A DNA stretch of 64,000 bases from assembly GCA_943354165.1 (NCBI GenBank), contig CALRBH010000003.1, forward strand, positions 5,149 through 69,148. Direction: 5' to 3'. Below, piece by piece: positions 11,774 through 36,204 of the stretch. Source of the DNA: Candidatus Uhrbacteria bacterium RIFOXYB12_FULL_58_10. GTDB taxonomy: Bacteria > Patescibacteriota > Patescibacteriia > UBA9934 > GWF2-40-263. The notes below the pieces were generated by a model that made no database searches, had not been told where the DNA came from, and saw nothing but the letters and a program-made list of their open reading frames with translations. Position 1 is the stretch's first letter. Every line of letters begins with the position of its first letter. A program made the translations under genes and the position numbers.

Positions 11774-12787
11774 ATGCCAGATATCCCCATGCCTAATAGT
11801 GCCGATTTTCTCTTGTACACCGGCCCGGACGGGGCAGTGCGGATTGACGTGTTCATGCGAGATGAAACGGTCTGGCTTACGCAGAAGCGGATGGCCGAGT
11901 TATTTGGCGTAGACAGAAGCGTCATTACGAAGCACTTAAGCAATATTTTTGAAGAAGCTGAGTTGAGCGAAAAAACAGTATGTGCAAATTTTGCACATAC
12001 TGCCGCTGACGGAAAAACCTATGAAACGCAGTTTTATAGTCTGGACGCGATCATTGCGGTTGGCTATCGCGTGAACTCCGAACAAGCAACGCAATTTCGT
12101 ATCTGGGCGACCAAGACCCTCAGTGGATACGTTGTAAAGGGGTTTGCGATCGATGACGAACGCCTTAAGAACGGACAGCACTTCGGGAAGGATTACTTCG
12201 ATGAACTGCTCGAGAAGATCCGGGAGATCCGCGCGAGCGAGCGCCGTTTCTATCAAAAGATCACGGACCTCTACGCGCAAGCAAGCATTGATTACGACAA
12301 GGCTTCCGAAACGACTTTTACGTTTTACAAGACCGTCCAGAACAAATTGCACTGCGCGATTCATGGGCACACAGCTCCTGAACTGATCGTGGAACGTGCA
12401 GATAGTGCGAAGCCAAAGATGGGACTTACGACGTGGAAGAACGCCCCTGCAGGGAAGATCCTCAAGTCCGATGTGGCCGTTGCAAAGAATTATCTGGAGG
12501 AGAAGGAGCTGACCGAACTCAATCGTGTCGTCTCCATGTATTTGGATTACGCCGAAGGGCAAGCGAAGAAACAACGGACGATGACCATGTGTGATTGGGC
12601 GGAAAAACTCGATGCGTTTCTTGCCTTCAATGAATACGATCTGCTGCGCGATGCGGGAAAAATCTCCGCAGAGGTGGCGAAGAAGTTGGCGGAGGAGGAA
12701 TACGAGAAATATCGCATTATCCAGGATCAGCAGTTTGTTTCAGATTTTGACGAGACGACGCGAAAATATCTTGAGGGAGGTGTATGA
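11774..12787 (+). CDS. RhuM-family protein
   Basis: N-terminal LLYTGPDGAVRIDVFMRDETVWLTQKRMAELFGVDRSVITKHLSNIF is the hallmark of the RhuM (PF13310) family, which is often island-borne. Confidence 0.75.
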   Translation: MPDIPMPNSADFLLYTGPDGAVRIDVFMRDETVWLTQKRMAELFGVDRSVITKHLSNIFEEAELSEKTVCANFAHTAADGKTYETQFYSLDAIIAVGYRVNSEQATQFRIWATKTLSGYVVKGFAIDDERLKNGQHFGKDYFDELLEKIREIRASERRFYQKITDLYAQASIDYDKASETTFTFYKTVQNKLHCAIHGHTAPELIVERADSAKPKMGLTTWKNAPAGKILKSDVAVAKNYLEEKELTELNRVVSMYLDYAEGQAKKQRTMTMCDWAEKLDAFLAFNEYDLLRDAGKISAEVAKKLAEEEYEKYRIIQDQQFVSDFDETTRKYLEGGV

Positions 12788-12802
12788 TTTTCCTGTTAGA
12801 CT

Positions 12803-14767
12803 GTGTGCAACCTTGACTCAAGATATCCACATATGCCCGAACGCCCCGGCCCTGGCCCAGAATTCCTAAAGAAGAAATACGACCTCCATAACACCCCGGA
12901 GGTCGCTTCGGCAGTGAAACGCACCGAGATTCGTACTGGCGAAAAGGCCCCGCAAGACCCGACTGTTCGCATCCAGAACTATCTCGACCGGCTCGAGCGA
13001 CTTGTCCTCGATACAGAAAAAACGCAGCGGCGGAAAAAACTGAAGGGAGGACGGGATGATGCCGAACGCCCACGAGCCATGACCTTGCTACGGGAAATGG
13101 TCATGAACAAATACGTTCGTCCTCAGAAGGAAAAGATGGCGCAGGCCGCTACTCGTGTGGAAGAACGCGCGGCAGGGGAACTCGGCATCAACATGCGTTA
13201 CACAGAAGAACAGCGAGAGCAGCGCGGCGACATCGCCGTAGAGGACGTGGAAGGCTCTCTCGACCAATGGATCAACTATCTTTCAGATCCGAACGAACCG
13301 TATCCGACCTGGTTTCGCTATTACGCCTTCCGAAACATTTTGGATCTGGGCGAGTACGACAAGGACAAAGGCGCGTTCCCAGAACGTTCTGCAGGAACCA
13401 TCCGCCTGTTTCCTGACATCGACCGGGGAGCCTTGGCCCACATGCAGGACCTTATCGAGGCTGATAAAGACTCAACCGTCTTTGATCGCTTACGGCATGC
13501 CCAGATGGAAACGCAGACACCGGCCGACCAGCTGCTAACCAAGGAAAAGGTTAAGGCGTTCGCAAACCTTTCCTTCGCCAAACAATACGCCGAAAGTATG
13601 AAGGAAGCGGGAGAAATCACTCCCGAGCTTCGAGCCGAAACCCGGGGATCGTGGGTGACATATCCAAAGGATTCAGACCCCGCTCCTTTGTGGAAGTCCC
13701 TTCAAAACAAAGGGGCTGCCTGGTGCACGAAAGGCTACGGCACGGCCGCGAACCAGCTGAAGGATGGAGATTTTCACGTTTATTACACCTTAGACAAGCA
13801 AGGGAACCCGACCATTCCTCGCATCGCCGTTCGGATGGTGGCTGAAAAGGTTTTTGAAGCGCGGGGAGTTGCCGACACGAAACAAAATCTTGAAGCCAAC
13901 ATGGCGGATATTGCTGAACAGAAGCTAAATCAGCTCCCCGGTGCGGAGAAATACCGCAAAGCAAGTGCGGACATGAAACAGCTCACCGACATCGGGAACA
14001 AGACTGAGAAGGAAACCGCTCTTACCAAGGCCGAACTAACGTTCCTATATGAGATCGATGGGTCGATCGAAGGGTTTGGGTATGGCCAAGACCCACGCAT
14101 AAAGGAGATTCAAGCCAAGCGTAATACCAAGGAGGATGCTCCTATTGTTCTTGACGTCGCTCCGGAAGAAATCGCCTGGAGCAAGAGTGAGATCGATCCA
14201 ATCCTCACCCGTGCCTACATCGGCCCATTGTTCCCGGGTGTATTCGAGATAAAAAATCTTGAACATTTGTACACAACTTTTCCTGCACGCGAAATTACGA
14301 CGACCACCCTCGAAGTCGGTGGGAAGACTCCGAAGCAATACGCCACCGAACTCACTAAGGCCGGTTTCAAGATTTACGACTACGCGCAGCAAATGCTCGA
14401 TAGAGCCGAGAAGGAAAAACTGTTTGTTGCAAAACGAAGTGAGAAAGATATTGTCCGTCTCACAGTAGCTGATCTCGGATTTTCGAATGGAGCCACGAAC
14501 CAGCAGATATGGGATCGCGGAATAGAGCTAGGCCTCGATCTGTGCCCTCCCGAGGTTGGACCAGAACTTCGTCTCTCCATGAAAGATCAACCACAAGGTG
14601 ATTATGTGGTTGTTATGATGAAACCCATCGCGGTCGCTGGTGGCGGCCTGGACGCGTTCGGCGTGTATGCGCGTGGCGGCGACCGCTGGCTCTTCGACGA
14701 CGATGGTCATCCCGGCCGCAGGCGGGATACCGACGATGCCGTTGCCTTCCTCCGTCGCAAGCATTAG
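12803..14767 (+). CDS. DGR target protein (variable C-terminal CLec/FGE-like region)
   Basis: 654 aa (alternative ATG at 12833). C-terminus ...YARGGDRWLFDDDGHPGRRRDTDDAVAFLRRKH resembles RGGSW...GFRL of FGE-type C-type-lectin folds that host DGR VRs. No signal peptide seen. Confidence 0.75.
   Translation: MCNLDSRYPHMPERPGPGPEFLKKKYDLHNTPEVASAVKRTEIRTGEKAPQDPTVRIQNYLDRLERLVLDTEKTQRRKKLKGGRDDAERPRAMTLLREMVMNKYVRPQKEKMAQAATRVEERAAGELGINMRYTEEQREQRGDIAVEDVEGSLDQWINYLSDPNEPYPTWFRYYAFRNILDLGEYDKDKGAFPERSAGTIRLFPDIDRGALAHMQDLIEADKDSTVFDRLRHAQMETQTPADQLLTKEKVKAFANLSFAKQYAESMKEAGEITPELRAETRGSWVTYPKDSDPAPLWKSLQNKGAAWCTKGYGTAANQLKDGDFHVYYTLDKQGNPTIPRIAVRMVAEKVFEARGVADTKQNLEANMADIAEQKLNQLPGAEKYRKASADMKQLTDIGNKTEKETALTKAELTFLYEIDGSIEGFGYGQDPRIKEIQAKRNTKEDAPIVLDVAPEEIAWSKSEIDPILTRAYIGPLFPGVFEIKNLEHLYTTFPAREITTTTLEVGGKTPKQYATELTKAGFKIYDYAQQMLDRAEKEKLFVAKRSEKDIVRLTVADLGFSNGATNQQIWDRGIELGLDLCPPEVGPELRLSMKDQPQGDYVVVMMKPIAVAGGGLDAFGVYARGGDRWLFDDDGHPGRRRDTDDAVAFLRRKH
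14631..14760 (+). repeat. DGR variable repeat (VR)
   Basis: Aligns with TR (offset 449 bp) over 130 bp. All 19 mismatches correspond to A in TR. The last ~40 bp are identical including unmutated As (IMH-like). Confidence 0.85.
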
Positions 14768-15079
14768 TACTTAGTCCTCGATTTTTTTAGATCTAGCCCT
14801 CAGTTCCTATGCCCTAAAAAACTTTTAGGATTTATACGTGTGATAGAATTGGAGAGGTAGTAGGCGAATCTTGCGAGAGATCACGGTTTCCCGCGGCCGA
14901 ATCCAGCATCTGTACATCGAGAATGTCTTCGATCACGGTTGGAGACAGGGTGGTGTATATGTCTTTCAAAAAATTGAAGATGCTTGGTGTGGGGTGCTAG
15001 GGCATTATGATGCCGAATTCGATTCAGCCCTGAGAATGGTCAAAGGGCGGTGTTTTGGAAGGCGCTCCATACATACGGA

Positions 15080-15209
15080 CGGACGCTGATGGCGACCTGA
15101 ACGCGTTCAACGTGAATGCGAATGACGGCGACCGCTGGCTCAACAACGACAATGGTCATCCCGACAACAAGCGGAATACCGACGATGCCGTTGCCTTCCT
15201 CCGTCGCAA
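15080..15209 (+). repeat. DGR template repeat (TR)
   Basis: Contains AAC/AAT codons (caacaacgacaat, cccgacaacaagcggaat) opposite varied VR codons. ORF 15055-15324 spanning it is probably not a protein. Confidence 0.85.
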
Positions 15210-15214
15210 CCACT

Positions 15215-15553
15215 TCATTTCTCTTCCGTCGCGGCAGACACGGAAGAGTTTTGTTTTTTGTTCAGTTGGCCGTCCCATCCGCCGAGGTTTCTTCCAATTT
15301 CATCTAGGAGTTCCGATAGCGTGATATATTTCTTGTTATCGAGCGATCCTGTTTCCCATAGGATCATCAGGAGAATTTTAGCCGTGTCGAGTTTGCGGAT
15401 CGCAAATCGGACCAGAGGAGATTTTTCCGGCTTCGGTAAAAAAGCAGCAACAGCAAGTGTCTCTATAACTTCTACAAATAGGCAATCTACCCGGATACCG
15501 AGCGAGTAACGGTGAGTTTTCGGGATCGTCTGGAGATAATTAAACCAAAGCAA
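15215..15553 (-). CDS. avd: Avd-like four-helix-bundle protein (accessory variability determinant candidate)
   Basis: ...KYITLSELLDEIGRNLGGW... closely matches the four-helix-bundle (IVS/Avd) family ending EIGKMLGGWIKS. TTG start; frame open to 15610, so helix 1 may start further upstream. Opposite strand to the RT. Confidence 0.6.
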   Translation of the reverse strand: MLWFNYLQTIPKTHRYSLGIRVDCLFVEVIETLAVAAFLPKPEKSPLVRFAIRKLDTAKILLMILWETGSLDNKKYITLSELLDEIGRNLGGWDGQLNKKQNSSVSAATEEK

Positions 15554-15618
15554 GTATGCACGTTTGGATTTCTCTAAAACTGGCAGTAATTGCGTTGGGG
15601 GGGGGAAAACTTAATTGA

Positions 15619-16620
15619 ATGTCGAATCGATTCGTCCATACGTACGAGGATATCATCTCGATCGAAAACCTGCTTGCGGCTTGGGAGGAATTTACGGTTG
15701 GTAAACGAGGACGGATTGATGTGCAGGAGTTTGGATTGAATCTGATGTCCAATATATTTGCCTTGCGTCGGGATCTTGTTGGCAAAACGTATGTTCACTC
15801 GCCGTATCATGCGTTTAACATCTCTGATCCAAAGCCACGGAATATCCATAAGGCAGCCGTAAGCGATCGTCTGCTGCATCATGCCGTTTATCGGATGCTC
15901 TATCCGTACTTTGACGCCAGGTTCATTGCGGATTCGTTTTCTTGTCGATTGGGGAAGGGGACGCATCGGGCGTTAGATCGGTTTCGTTCGTTCGCAAACA
16001 AGGTTTCACTGAATCACATACGAACGGTTTGGGTATTGAAGTGTGACATTAGGAAGTTCTTTGCGAATATCGATCACACCATCCTCTTAGGGATCCTGGG
16101 ACGATCAATCACTGACAAGGACATCAAGTGGCTGTTGGGGAGGATTGTCGGAAGTTTTTCGTCGACTCGGCACGGCGTCGGTTTACCGCTCGGGAATCTC
16201 ACCTCCCAGTTATTCGTGAATATCTACATGAACGAGTTTGATCAGTTCGTGAAAAAGAAACTGCACGTGAAGCATTACGTCCGATACGCTGATGATTTCG
16301 TCTTTCTGAGTGAAGATCGGAGCTGTTTGATCGGGGCCCTTACAGATATTGCTAACTTTCTCGGATCTCGATTGAGACTTTCATTGCATCCTGACAAGGT
16401 TTTTATTCAGACTTTTGCCTCGGGTGTAGATTTCCTTGGTTGGACCCATTTTCCTGATCACAGGGTCTTACGGACGACGACGAAACGGAGGATGATGAAC
16501 AGGATCAGTGAGGGGGTTGGAGATATGACCAAGGCCTCGTATCTCGGCCTGCTTATACATGGAAATGCGTTTGAAGCACAGCAGAAGATATCAAATACAC
16601 CTAACATCATTTTTGCTTGA
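15619..16620 (+). CDS. DGR reverse transcriptase
   Basis: 333 aa. Motifs FSCRLGKGTHRAL, VLKCDIRKFFANIDH, GLPLGNLTSQLFVNIYMNEFD (DGR-specific I/LGxxxSQ) and VRYADDFVFL (YxDD). Confidence 0.9.
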   Translation: MSNRFVHTYEDIISIENLLAAWEEFTVGKRGRIDVQEFGLNLMSNIFALRRDLVGKTYVHSPYHAFNISDPKPRNIHKAAVSDRLLHHAVYRMLYPYFDARFIADSFSCRLGKGTHRALDRFRSFANKVSLNHIRTVWVLKCDIRKFFANIDHTILLGILGRSITDKDIKWLLGRIVGSFSSTRHGVGLPLGNLTSQLFVNIYMNEFDQFVKKKLHVKHYVRYADDFVFLSEDRSCLIGALTDIANFLGSRLRLSLHPDKVFIQTFASGVDFLGWTHFPDHRVLRTTTKRRMMNRISEGVGDMTKASYLGLLIHGNAFEAQQKISNTPNIIFA

Positions 16621-16653
16621 TTTTCCACACATTTCTGCTAGGATACGCCCGTT

Positions 16654-18141
16654 ATGCAAGGCTTTTACGGGTATAGCTACGGGAAGATGCGTTTCTGGGA
16701 AATGCTCCCGGGCCTCCTCACCTGGGGAACTATTCTTCTGGCTATTCTGTTGTCCTTGTTTGCGCCAGTCGTCGCCATCGTCGCCATCATAGTCTTTGAC
16801 CTCTATTGGCTGACGCGGGTCGTCTATTTCGTCATTGTGCTGATCGCTTCGTATCGTTCCTACCGTCAGGCGTTGCGTGCGGATTGGAAACAGAAGCTCG
16901 GTGAAGTTTCAGGGGCTGACCGATTGCACCACCTCATCTTCCTGCCAACCTACAAGGAAGACCTTTCGATTATCCGTGCCACACTTCATGCGCTCGCGAG
17001 CCAAACCTTTCCGGCGAAGCGGATGATGATCGTCCTTGCGGGCGAGGCGAAGGATCATGAACGGTTTCAGAAAAACGCCGCCGCGGTGGTGCGCGAATTC
17101 AGTCAGGTATTCAAGCGCGTTATCATCACAGAACATCCATCCGGATTGCCAGAGGAAATTCCAGGGAAGGGATCCAATCTTCACTACGCCGGCAACAAAG
17201 TGGCAGAGATTCTCGCCAAGGAGGAACCAGCGCTTCGTGATGAAGACATCATTGCGTCTTCGTTCGATGTGGATACCATCGCGCATGCGGAATATTTTTC
17301 TTGTCTCGCGTATTTGTACGCGACAGTTCCGGATCCAACGCGCGCGTCCTATCAGCCGGTCGCGTTATTCTCGAACAACATCTGGGACGCTCCAGCCCCC
17401 GTACGCATCGCCGCGTTCGGGACCACGTTCTGGCTCATGGGCGAGCTCGCACGCAGCGAACGCCTTTGGACGTTCTCGTCCCATTCCATGCCATGGACCA
17501 TGCTGAAGGATGTCGGATTCTGGCAGAAGGACATCGTGTCCGAAGACTCGCGGATTTTCCTGCAGGCGTTCGTGCACTATGGCGGGGACTATCGCGTGGT
17601 GCCCATGTATCTTCCTGTGTCGATGGACACGGTCGCTGGCGTCGGCTACTTGGCATCGCTCAAGGCGCTCTACAAGCAGCAGCGCCGTTGGGCTTGGGGC
17701 GTGGAGCATCTGCCGGCGATGATCGCCGCGTTCCGCGTACACAAGGAAATTCCGTTCAAGCTGCGCGCCCGTGCCATCTTCAATCATGTGGAAGGCATGT
17801 TCACCTGGGCCACGGCTCCGCTCCTGATTTTCATCCTTGGGTATCTCCCACTCCAAATCGTTTCAGATCCGGAGGTGTTGGTTCAGGCGGCTCCGTATAC
17901 GCTGCAAGCGATTATGCGTTTCGCCACCATCGGTGTGTTCACTTCCGCGATCCTTTCGCTGTTCCTGCTCCCGAAGCGTCCGTCGTCCCATTCTCGTTGG
18001 ACGGGCCTCGTGATGTTGGCTCAATGGCTCCTGCTCCCGGTCACGTTCGTCTTGTTCGGGGCGCTGCCCGCCATCGATGCGCAAACACGGTTCTTGTTCG
18101 GTCGCTATCTCGGGTTTAACGTCACACAGAAAAAGCGCTGA
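16654..18141 (+). CDS. Membrane glycosyltransferase family 2 (processive beta-glycan synthase-like)
   Basis: N-terminal TM helices, GT2 core (FLPTYKEDLSIIRATLHAL, DVD, QxxRW-like QQRRWAWG) and C-terminal TM helices. Confidence 0.75.
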   Translation: MQGFYGYSYGKMRFWEMLPGLLTWGTILLAILLSLFAPVVAIVAIIVFDLYWLTRVVYFVIVLIASYRSYRQALRADWKQKLGEVSGADRLHHLIFLPTYKEDLSIIRATLHALASQTFPAKRMMIVLAGEAKDHERFQKNAAAVVREFSQVFKRVIITEHPSGLPEEIPGKGSNLHYAGNKVAEILAKEEPALRDEDIIASSFDVDTIAHAEYFSCLAYLYATVPDPTRASYQPVALFSNNIWDAPAPVRIAAFGTTFWLMGELARSERLWTFSSHSMPWTMLKDVGFWQKDIVSEDSRIFLQAFVHYGGDYRVVPMYLPVSMDTVAGVGYLASLKALYKQQRRWAWGVEHLPAMIAAFRVHKEIPFKLRARAIFNHVEGMFTWATAPLLIFILGYLPLQIVSDPEVLVQAAPYTLQAIMRFATIGVFTSAILSLFLLPKRPSSHSRWTGLVMLAQWLLLPVTFVLFGALPAIDAQTRFLFGRYLGFNVTQKKR

Positions 18142-18142
18142 T

Positions 18143-19192
18143 ATGACTACGCGCGTTATTGTCACCATCGTGGCCTGGAACGGCCTCCGGTATCTTAAGG
18201 AGCTTCTGCCATCCATGGATGCGCAGACGTTTCGGGATTTCCAACTAATCATCATCGATAATGGATCTACCGATGGCACGCTCGAATGGCTTCGCGCGAA
18301 CCATTCTCGCATCACCCTGCTTCGTAATACGCGCAACATCGGATTTGGTCCTGGGCACAACCAAGGAATTCGGTACGCGCTGGATCATTGGAAAGAGGCG
18401 CCGCTCGCTGACCGGTATATTCTGACGCTCAACCAGGACAGCATTTTGGCTCCCGCATTCCTTGATCGGCTCGTGGCCGAGGCGGAAGCCCACCCGGAAG
18501 CGGCTTCCTTTGGCGGGAAGCTCCTGCGGGCGTTCGGAGAGAACCTGCATGATGAAGTCATGCGCGAAACGGTAAAATCCGACATGATCGACACGACCGG
18601 ACTGACCGCGCACCGTAATCGCACATTTACGGAGCGCGGAGCAGGGGAGATGGACACGGGGCAATATAACGAAGCGGGGGAAGTATTCGGTCTTTGTGCG
18701 GCTGCCTGTTTGTATCGGGTGAGTGCGCTCGTTGAGGCGAAGTATAAGGAGGAATACTACGATCATGATTTCTTTGCGTACAAAGAAGATGTCGATCTCG
18801 CCTGGAGGTTGCGGTTGCTTGGGTGGGGTGCGCGTTACGTCCCCGGGGCGGTGGGATATCACTATCGCGGCGCCTATGGAAAGGAACAGATGGGTTGGCG
18901 TGAGCGATTAAAGAATCGCCGTGGGAAGGCTCAGGAACGGAATTTTGTTTCCACGCGCAATCACTGGAACCTGCTCATGAAGAACGAGCTGTTCGTAAAT
19001 GTGTTTCTCGCCCTGCCGTTCATCGCCTTTTCAGAAATTCGGCGTATCCTCTTTGTCTGCCTGTTCGAGCCCCGCACGATCCCGGCATTTTTCCAGGCGA
19101 TCGGACGTGTTCCGACGATGGCCCGTAAGCGACGTTCCATCATGCGGCGCAAGCGCGTAACGGCCATCGACCTGCGTAAATGGTTTATCTAA
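18143..19192 (+). CDS. Glycosyltransferase family 2
   Basis: VTIVAWNGLRYLKELLPSMDAQTFRDFQLIIIDNGSTDGT is a classic GT2 N-terminus. Confidence 0.75.
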   Translation: MTTRVIVTIVAWNGLRYLKELLPSMDAQTFRDFQLIIIDNGSTDGTLEWLRANHSRITLLRNTRNIGFGPGHNQGIRYALDHWKEAPLADRYILTLNQDSILAPAFLDRLVAEAEAHPEAASFGGKLLRAFGENLHDEVMRETVKSDMIDTTGLTAHRNRTFTERGAGEMDTGQYNEAGEVFGLCAAACLYRVSALVEAKYKEEYYDHDFFAYKEDVDLAWRLRLLGWGARYVPGAVGYHYRGAYGKEQMGWRERLKNRRGKAQERNFVSTRNHWNLLMKNELFVNVFLALPFIAFSEIRRILFVCLFEPRTIPAFFQAIGRVPTMARKRRSIMRRKRVTAIDLRKWFI

Positions 19193-19195
19193 CGT

Positions 19196-20017
19196 ATGGA
19201 CGTCTCCATCCTTATCGTGCACTACAACACCCCCGGCCTCCTGCGCCAGACCCTCAAAGGGATTCGCCGGAGCCTGCCTTCGGTTGTCCACGAGGTGATC
19301 GTGGTGGATAACAATCCAGACGCGCGCATTGGGGAGATGATGAAGGAATTCCCGGAAGTGAAACTCATCGAGAGCGCAAAGAACGCCGGATTCGGCGCCG
19401 GCATGAACGCGGCGATGAAGGTGGCGACCGGCCGATATCTTTTCGTCTTCAATCCCGACATCGCCCTTTTCTCCGGTGTGCTTGAGGAACTCGTGCGCTA
19501 CATGGACGCCAATCCAAAGGTAGGGATGTGTGGTCCGCAGCTTTTGAATCCAGACGGAAGCCTGCAGCTCAGCTGTTATCGCTTCATGCGCCCGATGACC
19601 GTCATTGGTCGTCGCGTGAGCTTCTCGCGCCTTGTACCAAGTGTCCGTGCGGATCTCGACGCCTACCTTATGAAGGATTGGGACCACAAGGAAACGCGCG
19701 ACGTTGATTATCTTCTCGGCGCCGCCATGTTCGCGCGCCGCGAGGCGATTGAAGCCGTCGGCGGATTCGATGAAGCGTTTTTCGTCTATTTTGAGGAGCA
19801 GGATTGGTGCCGCCGCTTCTGGAAAGCCGGGTGGCGTGTGGTGTATCACCCCGCAGCCAAGCTCGTGCATTATCACCGTCGCGAAACCGCGGAAGGCGGC
19901 CTGTTGGCGCAACTTTTGAACCCGCTTACCCACATCCAAATCAGAAGTGCGATATACTACTTCCGTAAGTACAGGAACGAACCGCATCCCTCTGCCGGGG
20001 TATGTCCCACCGCCTAA
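19196..20017 (+). CDS. Glycosyltransferase family 2
   Basis: ILIVHYNTPGLLRQTLKGI...VVDNNPD GT2 motif. Confidence 0.75.
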   Translation: MDVSILIVHYNTPGLLRQTLKGIRRSLPSVVHEVIVVDNNPDARIGEMMKEFPEVKLIESAKNAGFGAGMNAAMKVATGRYLFVFNPDIALFSGVLEELVRYMDANPKVGMCGPQLLNPDGSLQLSCYRFMRPMTVIGRRVSFSRLVPSVRADLDAYLMKDWDHKETRDVDYLLGAAMFARREAIEAVGGFDEAFFVYFEEQDWCRRFWKAGWRVVYHPAAKLVHYHRRETAEGGLLAQLLNPLTHIQIRSAIYYFRKYRNEPHPSAGVCPTA

Positions 20018-34763: not shown

Positions 34764-34839
34764 GCCGACATAGCTCAGTTGGTAGAGCGCATCCATGGTA
34801 AGGATGAGGTCATCGGTTCAATCCCGATTGTCGGCTCCA
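34764..34839 (+). tRNA. tRNA-Thr (anticodon GGT)
   Basis: Manual cloverleaf: acceptor gccgaca/tgtcggc, D-stem gctc/gagc, anticodon stem catcc/ggatg, loop atGGTaa, T-loop ttcaatc. CCA encoded. Confidence 0.85.
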
Positions 34840-34925
34840 GGGCAGGTACCCAAGCGGTCAAAGGGGGGAGACTGTAAATCTCTTGGCTTACGCCTACGTG
34901 GGTTCGAACCCCACCCTGCCCACCA
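34840..34925 (+). tRNA. tRNA-Tyr (anticodon GTA), type II with long variable arm
   Basis: Acceptor gggcagg/cctgccc, anticodon loop ctGTAaa, long variable arm, T-arm gggttcgaacccc. CCA encoded. Confidence 0.85.
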
Positions 34926-35011
34926 TCCTTCGCTCCTTGAGAGGAGCTTCGGCTGGCGGAGCCTGGCAGCGAATGCTGCCGCACCGCCGGACGTAGCCTT
35001 AGCGAAGTCCG
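34926..35011 (+). other. Highly structured 86-nt tRNA spacer containing the recurring gctccttgagaggagcttcgg hairpin motif
   Basis: Outer pairing ccttcgct/agcgaagg. Internal hairpins gctcc-ttgag-aggagc and ggcagc-gaat-gctgcc. Confidence 0.4.
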
Positions 35012-35087
35012 GCCGCCTTAGCTCAGCTGGTAGAGCAACAGTTTTGTAAACTGTAGGTCGTCGGTTCAAATCCGACAGGCGGCTCCA
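35012..35087 (+). tRNA. tRNA-Thr (anticodon TGT)
   Basis: Acceptor gccgcct/aggcggc, anticodon stem acagt/actgt, loop ttTGTaa, T-loop ttcaaat. CCA encoded. Confidence 0.85.
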
Positions 35088-35138
35088 TTGACAGAAACCG
35101 GCTGATCCCGTAAGGTTTCGGCAATTCACCTGATATAT

Positions 35139-35294
35139 ATGTCTCAAGATAATCTCATCAAGCTCGAGTGCATCGAGTGCAAGAAGGTTGGGTACAACAC
35201 CCACAAGAACAAGAAGATGCTCAAGGAACGTCTTGAGCTCTCCAAGTTCTGCAAGTGGTGCCGCGCCCACAACAAGCACAAGGAAACCAAATAA
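35139..35294 (+). CDS. rpmG: 50S ribosomal protein L33
   Basis: 51-aa ORF MSQDNLIKLECIECKKVGYNTHKNKKMLKERLELSKFCKWCRAHNKHKETK with the C4 zinc-ribbon pattern of L33. Below the ORF-track size cutoff. Confidence 0.85.
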   Translation: MSQDNLIKLECIECKKVGYNTHKNKKMLKERLELSKFCKWCRAHNKHKETK

Positions 35295-35332
35295 AAAAGA
35301 AGGCCGCCCAGAGAACCTGGGCGGCTTTTTTA
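35295..35332. terminator. Bidirectional intrinsic terminator
   Basis: A-run, hairpin ggccgcccag-agaa-cctgggcggc, then T6. Lies between convergent rpmG and the 35330-36037 (-) gene. Confidence 0.65.
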
Positions 35333-36037
35333 TAGGGAGTGACTCATCATAATGCGGACCGCACTCAAACGCTTTTTCATGGCACTCAAGTTGTGTGGTT
35401 CATGAGGATCCTTATTGACCCAGGAACCAACATGGGTGCTTCGCGCATGTTCGCCGCGACATCGAATAAGGAACAGCCCGTTCGCGAACACGACGTCTGG
35501 GCCGCCGTCCTTCGATTCACGCAGGATTCCGAGCTTGCGTGCCAGTCCCATGCTCGGAAAGCAGGGAAGGATCGGAAGGGATCCGTGGATGGTAATAGGG
35601 ATGGCTTCATCCCACGCGGTCCAGTGCTCGTTGGCAAACACGATGAGCGGAAGCGATTCTTCCAGACAAAATTGGATGAGAGGAAGCGTCAACATGTGCT
35701 GACGCTGCTTGTCATCCAACGGGGATGGAAGGGAATAAAAGGAACTGAAGGAAGCAATGAGACAGAGCGTTTCCTCCTTTCCGCGCTTCATGGGTTCGAT
35801 CAGCGTGCGGATTTCCGTACTCGGCGCAAAAACGAACGGATCATCTAGGAACGTGGGGACATAAATCTTATTCGGTCCCGGGGTCCCGTCAAATTCCTTT
35901 TCGAGGAGGTCGGGCAGGAATGTGACATGGAAAAGAGTATTGAATGTCGCCGTGTCGTCCGGCGGGGTGTCCGGATAGGAAAGATTTGCCGGATCCCCGG
36001 CAGGCGGCCGGGAATCGTTGGTCACAAGTATCTCCAA
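35330..36037 (-). CDS. Hypothetical protein
   Basis: 235-aa ORF with protein-like composition. Its plus-strand shadow ORF looks like junk. No family recognised. Confidence 0.4.
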   Translation of the reverse strand: MEILVTNDSRPPAGDPANLSYPDTPPDDTATFNTLFHVTFLPDLLEKEFDGTPGPNKIYVPTFLDDPFVFAPSTEIRTLIEPMKRGKEETLCLIASFSSFYSLPSPLDDKQRQHMLTLPLIQFCLEESLPLIVFANEHWTAWDEAIPITIHGSLPILPCFPSMGLARKLGILRESKDGGPDVVFANGLFLIRCRGEHARSTHVGSWVNKDPHEPHNLSAMKKRLSAVRIMMSHSL

Positions 36038-36130
36038 GTTGGTGAAGGTCGAATAGTGGTATATTCGGTGGTTTTGTCAATCCATTGCGCTTCACAAAAC
36101 CGAGAGAATCTGGCACACTGCGCCCCGCAG

Positions 36131-36204
36131 AGGGGCGTAGTGAAGTGGTATCACGCGGGTCTCCAAAACCCTCATTGTTGGTTCGATTCCAACCGCCCCT
36201 GCCA
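36131..36204 (+). tRNA. tRNA-Trp (anticodon CCA)
   Basis: Acceptor aggggcg/cgcccct, D-stem gtga/tcac, anticodon loop ctCCAaa, T-arm gttggttcgattccaac. CCA encoded. Confidence 0.8.

Follow-up and report, generated by a model that had tools for sequence, protein, structure and literature searches.

Does this locus carry a diversity-generating retroelement (DGR), the known bacterial system in which error-prone reverse transcription rewrites the tip of one protein, and, if so, which known systems does it resemble and is it still at work? The question is raised by a pair of repeats: within the window (the whole 64-kb stretch of DNA that was analysed), a repeat search returned a sole direct-repeat family, with copies at 14631-14763 and 15080-15212 at a spacing of 449 and 85% identity. 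The first copy contains VR (variable repeat; 14631..14760, plus strand), which forms the final 45 codons of the target gene, and the second contains TR (template repeat; 15080..15209, plus strand), which is non-coding and has a base composition of 33 A, 41 C, 35 G and 21 T.

An adenine-restricted repeat pair and its reverse transcriptase

Base-by-base comparison of 14631-14760 with 15080-15209 reproduced the alignment proposed in the first-pass annotation, gap-free at offset 449 with 130 aligned positions and 19 mismatches, and upheld its central claim that TR carries A at every mismatch (19/19; hypergeometric p = 2.7e-14) and VR a G, C or T (G 13, T 4, C 2). None of the 97 non-A positions of TR differ (0/97), mismatches of that kind being what the annotation had set against its own reading, and the two TR/VR example strings that it cited are both exact. 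The changed adenines occupy codon positions 1 and 2 (nine and ten, respectively) and never position 3, where TR is without any adenine; nine of the varied TR codons are AAC or AAT, the codons that had been pointed out. Homology ends, again as described, at 14760/15209, with the target stop codon 4 nt further on (14765-14767), and a possible 20th A-to-G difference lies at the 5′ edge (15079 A / 14630 G). A search of both strands of the 64-kb window, allowing up to 25 non-A mismatches, found no further VR of this TR beyond the two known copies. An ordinary partial gene duplication followed by point mutation, with the A bias a product of chance or of the mutational spectrum, has a negligible probability: direct repeats this long do arise in that way and 13 of the 19 changes are A-to-G, i.e., transitions, but the mismatch pattern is strand- and base-specific to the degree expressed by the p value above, no T, G or C and no third position has changed, and the same A-biased pattern recurs independently at 60 related loci beside the same reverse transcriptase (RT) and Avd. 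The lack of any non-A difference between TR and VR, moreover, favours a recent homing event over an old duplication.

The RT gene (15619..16620, plus strand; 333 aa) matches RVT_1 (E 1.2e-21) and phrog_1423 (E 4.6e-101), and the best PDB match of its product is 8ub7_A (E 1.2e-41, residues 4-298), which we take to be Bordetella bRT, with group II intron RTs at 1e-19. Its motifs LGNLTSQ and YADD align with IGSLTSQ and YMDD of bRT and, judged by motifs ([I/L/V]GxxxSQ, YxDD) and closest solved relative, the enzyme is an RT of the DGR type. The gene for Avd (accessory variability determinant; 15215..15553, minus strand; 112 aa) runs in the opposite direction to TR and RT; its product matches NF033474 DivGenRetAVD (E 1.9e-12) and PF22296 bAvd (E 7e-8), both with scores under the curated cut-offs, as well as PHROG 3206 ‘Avd protein of DGR’ (E 1.4e-10), and finds in a PDB profile search a sole match, to 4dwl bAvd (E 0.74). 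The RT and Avd ORFs are intact, the former with its catalytic motifs. That this RT comes from a different kind of retroelement (a group II intron, a retron or a defence RT) and lies near the repeat by coincidence is scarcely credible: the top NCBIfam match is indeed a group II intron RT model (E 9e-39, far under its cut-off), weaker NCBIfam matches are to Drt and retron models and public annotations label relatives as ‘retron-type’ or ‘group II intron’ RT, but Bordetella bRT is far closer (1e-41) than any group II or retron RT, for which the E value is 1e-19 at best, no maturase/X domain, endonuclease domain or intron RNA is present, Avd adjoins the RT and TR/VR pairs accompany the RT relatives.

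Indeed, the layout is conserved. We confirmed 574 RT relatives in species-representative genomes and kept the best 80 of these; the relatives share 59-69% identity and come from MAGs mostly labelled Patescibacteria. An A-biased TR/VR pair is present in 60 of these best 80 relatives, with VR upstream of TR, as here, in 59, and Avd is on the minus strand in 77/77 scorable relatives. Every testable DGR component was found at its expected place, which supports the identification made in the first-pass annotation, and we consider it highly probable (roughly 0.93) that the element is a chromosomal DGR of the type common in the tiny bacteria of the candidate phyla radiation (CPR; Patescibacteria), and an unexceptional representative of the B3 / clade 2 group already published.

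The target protein and the 3′ end of its variable repeat

The target (variable-protein) gene (12803..14767, plus strand) is a 654-aa ORF when read from GTG 12803, and a database copy (P0001) together with the family alignment suggests that ATG 12833 may be the real start (644 aa). Its homologues number more than 614; with lengths of about 640 aa and 54-61% identity, they are, where a source name is given, hypothetical proteins of Patescibacteria, and their alignment is conserved apart from the hypervariable last ~45 residues, which are VR. Searches of Pfam (including at E 10), NCBIfam, PHROGs and PADLOC and a PDB profile search gave no match for the protein, and inspection by eye reveals neither a signal peptide nor a transmembrane segment. 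An AF2 model of the target reaches pLDDT 82, and its C-terminal 190 aa (14195..14764, plus strand) include a predicted C-type-lectin-like domain carrying VR, so that VR is predicted to sit in such a fold at the C-terminus of the target. VR residues on a C-terminal CLec-type fold are the mark of the DGR variable proteins Mtd, TvpA, AvpA and TaqVP, to which the target may be akin. A ‘PcfJ-like’ identity of the target, a lead from Wu et al., is unsupported by the profile searches. One widely conserved, cytoplasmic-looking 640-aa protein family of Patescibacteria is a recurrent DGR target, and the role of CPR DGR targets is a question already raised by Roux et al. (2021; PMC8144416).

The last part of VR (14727..14760, plus strand) is identical to TR 15176-15209 and retains six unchanged adenines. 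The first-pass annotation had described an identical, adenine-containing 3′ segment of ~40 bp; identity and adenines hold, whereas the length is 34 nt and the string quoted for it 30 nt. Invariant 3′ blocks in the relatives commonly measure 14-34 nt and mostly have CGCAA at the end. It is reasonable to read the block as a putative IMH (initiation of mutagenic homing) region, with two qualifications: the VR and TR copies are the same, so the block alone cannot separate donor from recipient, unlike the Bordetella IMH/IMH*, and, since the conserved final strand of the fold is also encoded there, its constancy could be due to selection as well.

The zone that follows VR (14761..14829, plus strand) comprises the stop codon, short repeats of NTTAG/CTCAG type (14761-14812) and then a hairpin (14813-14829) that is weak, AT-rich and 7 bp long (CCTAAAA-AAC-TTTTAGG), 53 nt downstream of VR. 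Across 60 loci, the 110 nt after VR are enriched 17.7-fold in CTTAG and 9-fold in CTTTG, and most relatives have a hairpin of 10-18 bp beyond the pentamer zone, 50-90 nt after VR. In Bordetella, a GC-rich hairpin is needed for efficient homing. A hairpin or cruciform downstream of VR, which the first-pass annotation had suggested looking for, did not turn up in GC-rich form, and the fold of 14720-14900 is no better than that of shuffled sequences (z = -0.89). The Bordetella/Legionella definition of IMH (an IMH differing from IMH*, then a GC-rich inverted repeat) thus does not describe this site; identical IMH/IMH* are known to occur, however, and an inverted repeat is present in only 34% of DGRs, according to passages in Wu et al. 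(2018; PMC5758913), so that the combination of IMH and repeat is not universal. Loss of the VR-downstream hairpin by deletion relative to a related locus (L053) was also considered; it came from one pairwise comparison only and was reduced to ‘weaker hairpin’.

A structured RNA around TR

TR is embedded in a structured RNA of ~400 nt, predicted from covariation to span roughly 14856-15260. Immediately upstream lies an extended -10-like box (TGATAGAAT; 14841..14849, plus strand), a candidate promoter for the TR RNA; on inspection of the alignments, many relatives show a TGnTAnAAT-like box at the corresponding site, and a sigma-70/terminator scan of 14500-16800 yielded nothing informative near TR and no -35/-10 pair at this box. 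The conserved structured 5′ leader (14856..15079, plus strand; about 220 nt; RNAalifold, 57 loci) contains, all on the plus strand, helices P1 (14873-82/14885-94), P2 (14914-34/14937-56) and P4 (14987-98/15061-72), the last enclosing hairpins 15002-05/15010-13 and 15027-35/15040-48. A long-range leader:linker duplex, P3, closes TR by pairing a 5′ strand at 14975-80 with a 3′ strand in the linker at 15212-15217 (plus strand). The 3′ element (15210..15260, plus strand) comprises the 3′ strand of P3, a 9-bp stem-loop (15221-15229/15240-15248) and a U tract (15249-15260).

The 57 loci give 53 pairs, 48 of them with compensatory changes; pairing is kept in 90.7% of cells, compared with 41-50% for slid partners, double-change cells number 737, compared with 118-196, and none of 500 pair-count shuffles attained the observed values. 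Both P3 and the 3′ stem-loop covary, 50/60 loci have a stem of 6 bp or more that begins 7-16 nt beyond TR and is followed by a T-rich tail, and the copy in the window retains nearly all of the RNA helices. In P3, the last leader residue is not invariant, with AU in 35/57 loci, and we claim no priming site. Rfam has no family for the TR-flanking RNA: in the window, nothing but tRNAs reaches the gathering threshold, and the sole Rfam match in 14700-15700 at E up to 10, CRISPR-DR63 on the stem-loop, is spurious. An ‘Avd-binding stem-loop’ with an upstream/downstream duplex has been predicted for 207/278 Avd-containing DGRs (bioRxiv 10.1101/2023.10.23.563531), and the 3′ stem-loop and P3 are comparable to these two elements. 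The full non-coding RNA of the CPR clade is herein defined with covariation support, a prerequisite for reconstituting or re-engineering these compact DGRs.

We hypothesize that the non-coding TR would be transcribed within this RNA and that RT, together with Avd, would copy it into cDNA, misincorporating opposite template adenines; the cDNA would then replace the homologous VR with which the coding part of the target gene closes. Up to 19 codons might be recoded in this way on the ligand-binding face of the C-type-lectin-like domain, giving about 1e17 possible proteins, whereas the 34-nt invariant block and the remainder of the target protein would not change. The direction of transfer from TR to VR, the cis-priming of cDNA synthesis, the service of the 3′ block as homing boundary and the binding of Avd to the stem-loop are all modelled on the Bordetella paradigm and may hold here by analogy.

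Activity, a possible switch and comparison with known systems

In weighing the DGR explanation, we set against it the below-cut-off Avd profile scores, the absent GC-rich hairpin, the identical 3′ block of VR and TR and the identical VRs in related groups. Some of these points would also suit a genuine DGR cassette that is now an inactive fossil, its VR recording past homing while the cassette drifts or is switched off. There is one VR sequence only for this strain and hence no demonstrable population variation, VRs are identical between samples with identical RTs in three related groups (P0164, P0210 and P0201, plus the decayed P0221 group), decay is clear in one related lineage (L083-L089), where TR and VR differ by non-A mismatches and a 1-nt indel, and the window is without the strong hairpin that most relatives have after VR. 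Nevertheless, we regard fossilization as improbable at this locus, where no non-A position differs between TR and VR, the RT and Avd ORFs are both intact and nearly all RNA helices are kept; furthermore, consensus assemblies mask minority VR variants, such that identical consensus VRs are weak evidence on activity.

For a chromosomal DGR of CPR type, a possible means of control is suggested by a G9 homopolymer (15597..15605, plus strand) in the 65-nt avd-RT intergenic region, which ends 13 nt before the RT start codon; the 64-kb window has no other run of at least 7 G or C. A G5-G14 tract, usually of G7-G14, occupies the same spot in 70/78 relatives and another simple repeat is found there in six of the remaining eight; the non-G repeats, in other lineages, are (GT)n, (CT)n, (CTGG)n or heptamer repeats. 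Samples encoding identical RT differ by G10/G11 in 2/4 identical-RT groups, for which homopolymer assembly errors could be the source, a TAnnnT follows the tract in 25/68 loci (as a pattern match only), and a metagenome scan with the G-tract flanks for same-strain copies gave 0 matches. We propose, tentatively and with more doubt than conviction, a stochastic on/off switch on the mutagenesis machinery, in which slippage in the hypermutable avd-RT repeat may set the expression of RT and/or Avd; the avd-RT tract points to phase variation as a possible control on hypermutation. Apart from this, the RNA has a clade-specific architecture (the 220-nt covarying leader, the leader:linker duplex looping TR and the terminator-like stem-loop within about 50 nt of the TR end), with which any cis-priming site would be placed otherwise than with the 140-nt downstream spacer of Bordetella, in a topology nearer that of retron msr/msd.

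Simple-sequence-repeat contingency (phase-variation) promoters, such as those of Neisseria porA/opc and Haemophilus hifA/hifB, resemble this intergenic region in having a long homopolymer or short tandem repeat between divergent genes near a -10-like box, a repeat type that varies by lineage at one position and one-unit length differences between otherwise identical sequences. Unlike these established promoters, the switch here is putative, its promoter elements being pattern matches only, and to our knowledge no such switch has been described for any DGR.

The prototype DGR of Bordetella phage BPP-1 (mtd-avd-TR-brt) shares with the present element the adenine-specific TR-to-VR differences and AAY codon design, a bRT-homologous RT (E 1e-41, same motifs), an Avd homologue, a VR in a C-terminal CLec-type fold (predicted here) and an invariant 3′ block. 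Unlike the phage-borne BPP-1 element, the locus here is chromosomal and has a target other than a tail fibre. Its counterparts of IMH and IMH* do not differ, no GC-rich cruciform follows VR, and avd is inverted between TR and RT, so that RT cannot be co-transcribed with TR as it is in Bordetella. Most of the conserved structured RNA (about 220 nt) also lies upstream of TR and, where BPP-1 has a 140-nt spacer, a terminator-like stem-loop and U tract follow within about 50 nt downstream of TR.

Among the published CPR systems, DGR clade 2 is confined to Patescibacteria (Roux et al. 2021; PMC8144416), and passages in Wu et al. (2018; PMC5758913) give architecture B3 as 90% of the CPR DGR set; we infer from the wording of those passages that B3 denotes ‘target, TR, inverted avd, RT’. 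The element described here agrees with CPR B3 / clade 2, as far as those passages and Roux et al. (2021) portray it, in host group, in its components (target, TR and RT, accompanied by Avd as the sole accessory gene), in the placement of Avd and TR otherwise than in Bordetella, in a C-terminal VR and in a target without recognisable transmembrane or Pfam domain. Nothing essential differs, and the TR/VR pair itself is one more DGR beside the thousands catalogued in CPR bacteria.

Repeat pair and cassette genes

A direct-repeat search of 12000-19000 returned one long repeat (14631-14763 and 15080-15212, spacing 449), and base-by-base comparison of the variable repeat (VR, 14631-14760) with the template repeat (TR, 15080-15209) aligned 130 positions without gaps and with 19 mismatches, reproducing the alignment described in the first-pass annotation together with the two pairs of example sequences quoted there, both of which are exact. 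TR carries adenine at 19/19 mismatches, where VR carries G (13 positions), T (4) or C (2); adenine occupies 33 of the 130 TR positions, and the hypergeometric probability of this outcome by chance is 2.7e-14. Mismatches at non-adenine TR positions, named at the outset as evidence against a diversity-generating retroelement (DGR), are absent (0/97 changed in VR). In the frame of the target ORF, nine changes fall at first and ten at second codon positions, TR has zero adenines at third positions, and AAC or AAT stands at nine of the codons that vary, the asparagine design proposed. The invariant 3′ segment likened to an initiation-of-mutagenic-homing region is present and contains six adenines, with a length of 34 nt (14727-14760) rather than the approximately 40 nt first reported. 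One extra A/G difference lies on the 5′ edge of the pair (15079/14630), and no further TR copy was found in the window on either strand with up to 25 non-A mismatches tolerated.

The DGR reading was correct, and the cassette is complete: a target gene ending in VR, TR, an accessory variability determinant (Avd) and a reverse transcriptase (RT). The target ORF (12803-14767, + strand) encodes 654 aa, of which VR supplies the final 45 codons; the true start is probably the ATG at 12833, as in an identical 644-aa database protein (P0001). TR (+ strand) is non-coding DNA and is followed by the Avd ORF (15215-15553, − strand, 112 aa), which is matched by three libraries (PF22296, E 7e-8; NF033474, E 1.9e-12, both scoring under the curated cut-offs; PHROG 3206 'Avd protein of DGR', E 1.4e-10) and whose sole PDB match is Bordetella bAvd (4dwl, E 0.74). 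RT (15619-16620, + strand, 333 aa) matches RVT_1 (E 1.2e-21) and phrog_1423 (E 4.6e-101), and its best PDB match, over residues 4-298, is 8ub7_A (a 328-aa 'Reverse transcriptase', E 1.2e-41), which is presumably the DGR enzyme of Bordetella (bRT) from a cryo-EM study; the next matches, to RTs of group II introns and to chains titled as retron-type RTs, have E 1e-19 or weaker. Aligned to bRT, the RT motifs read GVGLPLGNLTSQLF versus GVGIPIGSLTSQLF and YADD versus YMDD. Residues I181, G182, Q187, D215 and D216 of bRT are template- or dNTP-contacting or catalytic (bioRxiv 10.1101/2023.10.23.563531).

Directly upstream of the target lies a RhuM-family gene (11774-12787; Pfam E 3e-112), which is hit as well by PDC-S05, a candidate defence family of PADLOC (E 4.5e-153). 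RT is followed by three family-2 glycosyltransferase genes in a row (16654-20017), with a DUF4012 gene next on the 90-kb source contig (ENA ERZ28613056, 'MEHR18-3 ... scaffold_207'), an ordinary chromosomal context in which no phage genes were seen. A cluster of four tRNA genes at 34764-36201 provides the window's only Rfam matches.

Related loci, target family and activity

Scanning one genome per species confirmed 574 relatives of the RT, and the best 80 of the 574 (59-69% identity) were compared. For most of them the source is a MAG with the label Patescibacteria, Paceibacterota or Parcubacteria; the labels of a few are different, possibly through mis-binning. A TR/VR-type pair (at least 80% A-specific mismatches) is present in 60/80 loci, and most of the loci without a detected pair are also without upstream sequence. 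VR lies 360-570 nt upstream of TR in 59 of the 60 pairs, and TR ends approximately 400 nt before RT; in the remaining one, L023, the repeat pair is atypical and placed elsewhere. A tblastn search with the window Avd located this gene on the minus strand, between TR and RT, in 77/77 loci having upstream DNA. The window element is a complete DGR of an already known Patescibacteria type and belongs to 'clade 2', a group confined to Patescibacteria with targets lacking recognizable domains (Roux et al., PMC8144416).

The target protein is unrecognized by Pfam, NCBIfam, PHROGs, PADLOC and PDB profile search. It has more than 614 homologues, all of approximately 640 aa and 54-61% identical, which where a source name is given are each a 'hypothetical protein' from many Patescibacteria lineages. 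Their alignment contains many invariant residues across the first ~600 positions (motifs EPYPTWFRYYAFRN, AWCTKG, GDFYVYYT and IPRIAIRM), whereas the final ~45 residues are hypervariable save for W, P and a terminal FVFRLRK-like strand, and this combination of conserved body and hypervariable tail marks the family as a recurrent DGR target. The full-length family was found at just two of the 80 RT loci, L013 and L056; several others have only the last ~150 residues in common with it, which fits the modular organization of DGR targets (Roux et al., PMC8144416). In an AF2 model of the full-length target (pLDDT 82.4), VR forms the last three strands of a predicted C-type-lectin-like domain, and the best Foldseek matches of the predicted structure in the PDB are Mincle C-type lectin domains, at weak scores (E 0.6, TM 0.43-0.45). 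Judged from these modest scores and a predicted model, a C-type-lectin-like fold of the VR domain is likely. Through the last changed codon, 19 codons contain adenine, which by computation would give access to ~1.3e17 stop-free protein variants.

The zero non-A differences between TR and VR argue for recent homing at the window DGR. The VR of the window's strain is represented by one sequence only, other copies of the strain were not found in a metagenome scan, and consensus VRs are identical between samples in related groups sharing the same RT. A second, independently assembled contig of this strain (L082, from Logan SRR7054680) begins at the TR boundary, 36 nt ahead of the avd stop; it probably broke at the TR/VR repeat, as assemblies typically do at repeats. 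In a related lineage with RT P0221 (L083-L089), TR and VR differ by a 1-nt indel and by several mismatches at non-A positions, VR is identical across five samples, and only (GA)5 stands in place of poly-G before RT; from its sequence, this lineage looks to be decaying.

Predicted RNA structure around the template repeat

The first-pass annotation had suggested a search for a hairpin or cruciform downstream of VR, and a GC-rich inverted repeat like that of Bordetella was looked for and not found 3′ of the window VR. Across 60 loci, the ~50 nt past the target stop abound in short CTTAG/CTTTG/CTTGG-type units (CTTAG 17.7-fold and CTTTG 9-fold over locus background), usually followed in relatives by a 10-18 bp hairpin and then the putative promoter region of the TR RNA. 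The window has this pentamer zone (14761-14812), after which its only hairpin is a weak, AT-rich one of 7 bp (14813-29). At most, the zone might help in recognition of the target.

We predict that TR is embedded in a conserved, structured RNA of approximately 400 nt (14856-15079 and 15210-15260) with very strong covariation. The non-coding DNA 5′ of TR is strongly conserved across the 57 loci aligned (235 nt upstream through 52 nt downstream of TR), in which RNAalifold predicted 53 pairs, 48 with compensatory changes. With the 3′ stem-loop and an AAA:UUU extension of the long-range helix P3 added to these, standard pairs fill 90.7% of 3322 cells (41-50% in controls with partners slid 1-3 columns), double-sided changes occur in 737 cells (118-196 in slid controls), the covariation score reaches 0.618 (at most 0.18 in controls), and 0/500 shuffles reached the observed values. 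This base-pair covariation points to RNA rather than protein constraint, so the three mechanical ORFs overlapping the leader and TR (14871-15089, 15055-15324 and, on the minus strand, 15040-15213) are probably not genes.

On the plus strand, an extended −10-like box of the TGnTAnAAT type (14841-14849), similar to boxes visible in many relatives, precedes the conserved GGTAGTAGGCGAAT (14856-14869) of the leader and the covarying hairpins P1 (14873-82/14885-94) and P2 (14914-34/14937-56), the latter next to an A-rich run. The 5′ strand of P3 (14975-80) pairs with 15212-17, a few nt past the TR end, and a nearly invariant UACUUGG-like linker separates this 5′ strand from the 12-bp P4 (14987-98/15061-72), which encloses two small hairpins; with P3 and P4 holding both sides, TR would form a closed loop. 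A 9-bp stem-loop 3′ of TR (15221-29/15240-48) is directly followed by UUUUGUUUUUUG (15249-60). In 50/60 loci, a T-rich tail comes after a stem of 6 bp or more that begins 7-16 nt past TR, and the stem-loop with its U tract is a putative terminator of the TR RNA.

No Rfam family matched the TR-flanking RNA in the window. A previous RNA analysis of DGRs took in 40 nt of upstream and 100 nt of downstream sequence (bioRxiv 10.1101/2023.10.23.563531); the window stem-loop and P3 fit its stem-loop and upstream/downstream duplex categories. The upstream partner of P3, ~100 nt before TR, falls outside the 40-nt span. The 220-nt leader (P1, P2 and P4) appears to be previously undescribed.

Simple repeat between avd and RT

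The 65-nt avd-RT spacer contains a G9 tract (15597-15605, + strand) that ends 13 nt before the RT ATG and is the sole G or C run of at least 7 in the 64-kb window. At this position, 70/78 related loci have a tract of G5-G14 (mode 10). Of the eight that do not, six have some other simple repeat in its place: (GT)n in two, and (CT)n, (CTGG)n, (TGATTGC)n or (GGCGGCT)n in one each. G/C runs of at least 7 number just 79 in 805 kb of related loci, roughly 70 of them at this site. A GGCAA-like motif stands before the tract in 46/68 loci and a TAnnnT hexamer directly after it in 25/68.

Tract length was compared between assemblies from different samples sharing an identical RT. It differs in RT groups P0164 (G11 in two contigs, G10 in two) and P0210 (G11 three times, G10 twice, with a TGGCAA-TAGAAT spacing of 18 or 17 nt), and is invariant in groups P0205 and P0201 and in the window's own assemblies. 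The repeat may switch expression of RT and/or Avd in a phase-variable manner, but the G10/G11 differences may also be homopolymer miscalls of short-read assemblies. Full-text literature searches found no paper linking DGRs to homopolymeric tracts or phase-variable control. The covarying RNA, this simple repeat and the recurrent conserved target family are comparative by-products that deserve pursuit. In its varied repeat types at one position and its one-unit length differences, the avd-RT site resembles contingency loci.
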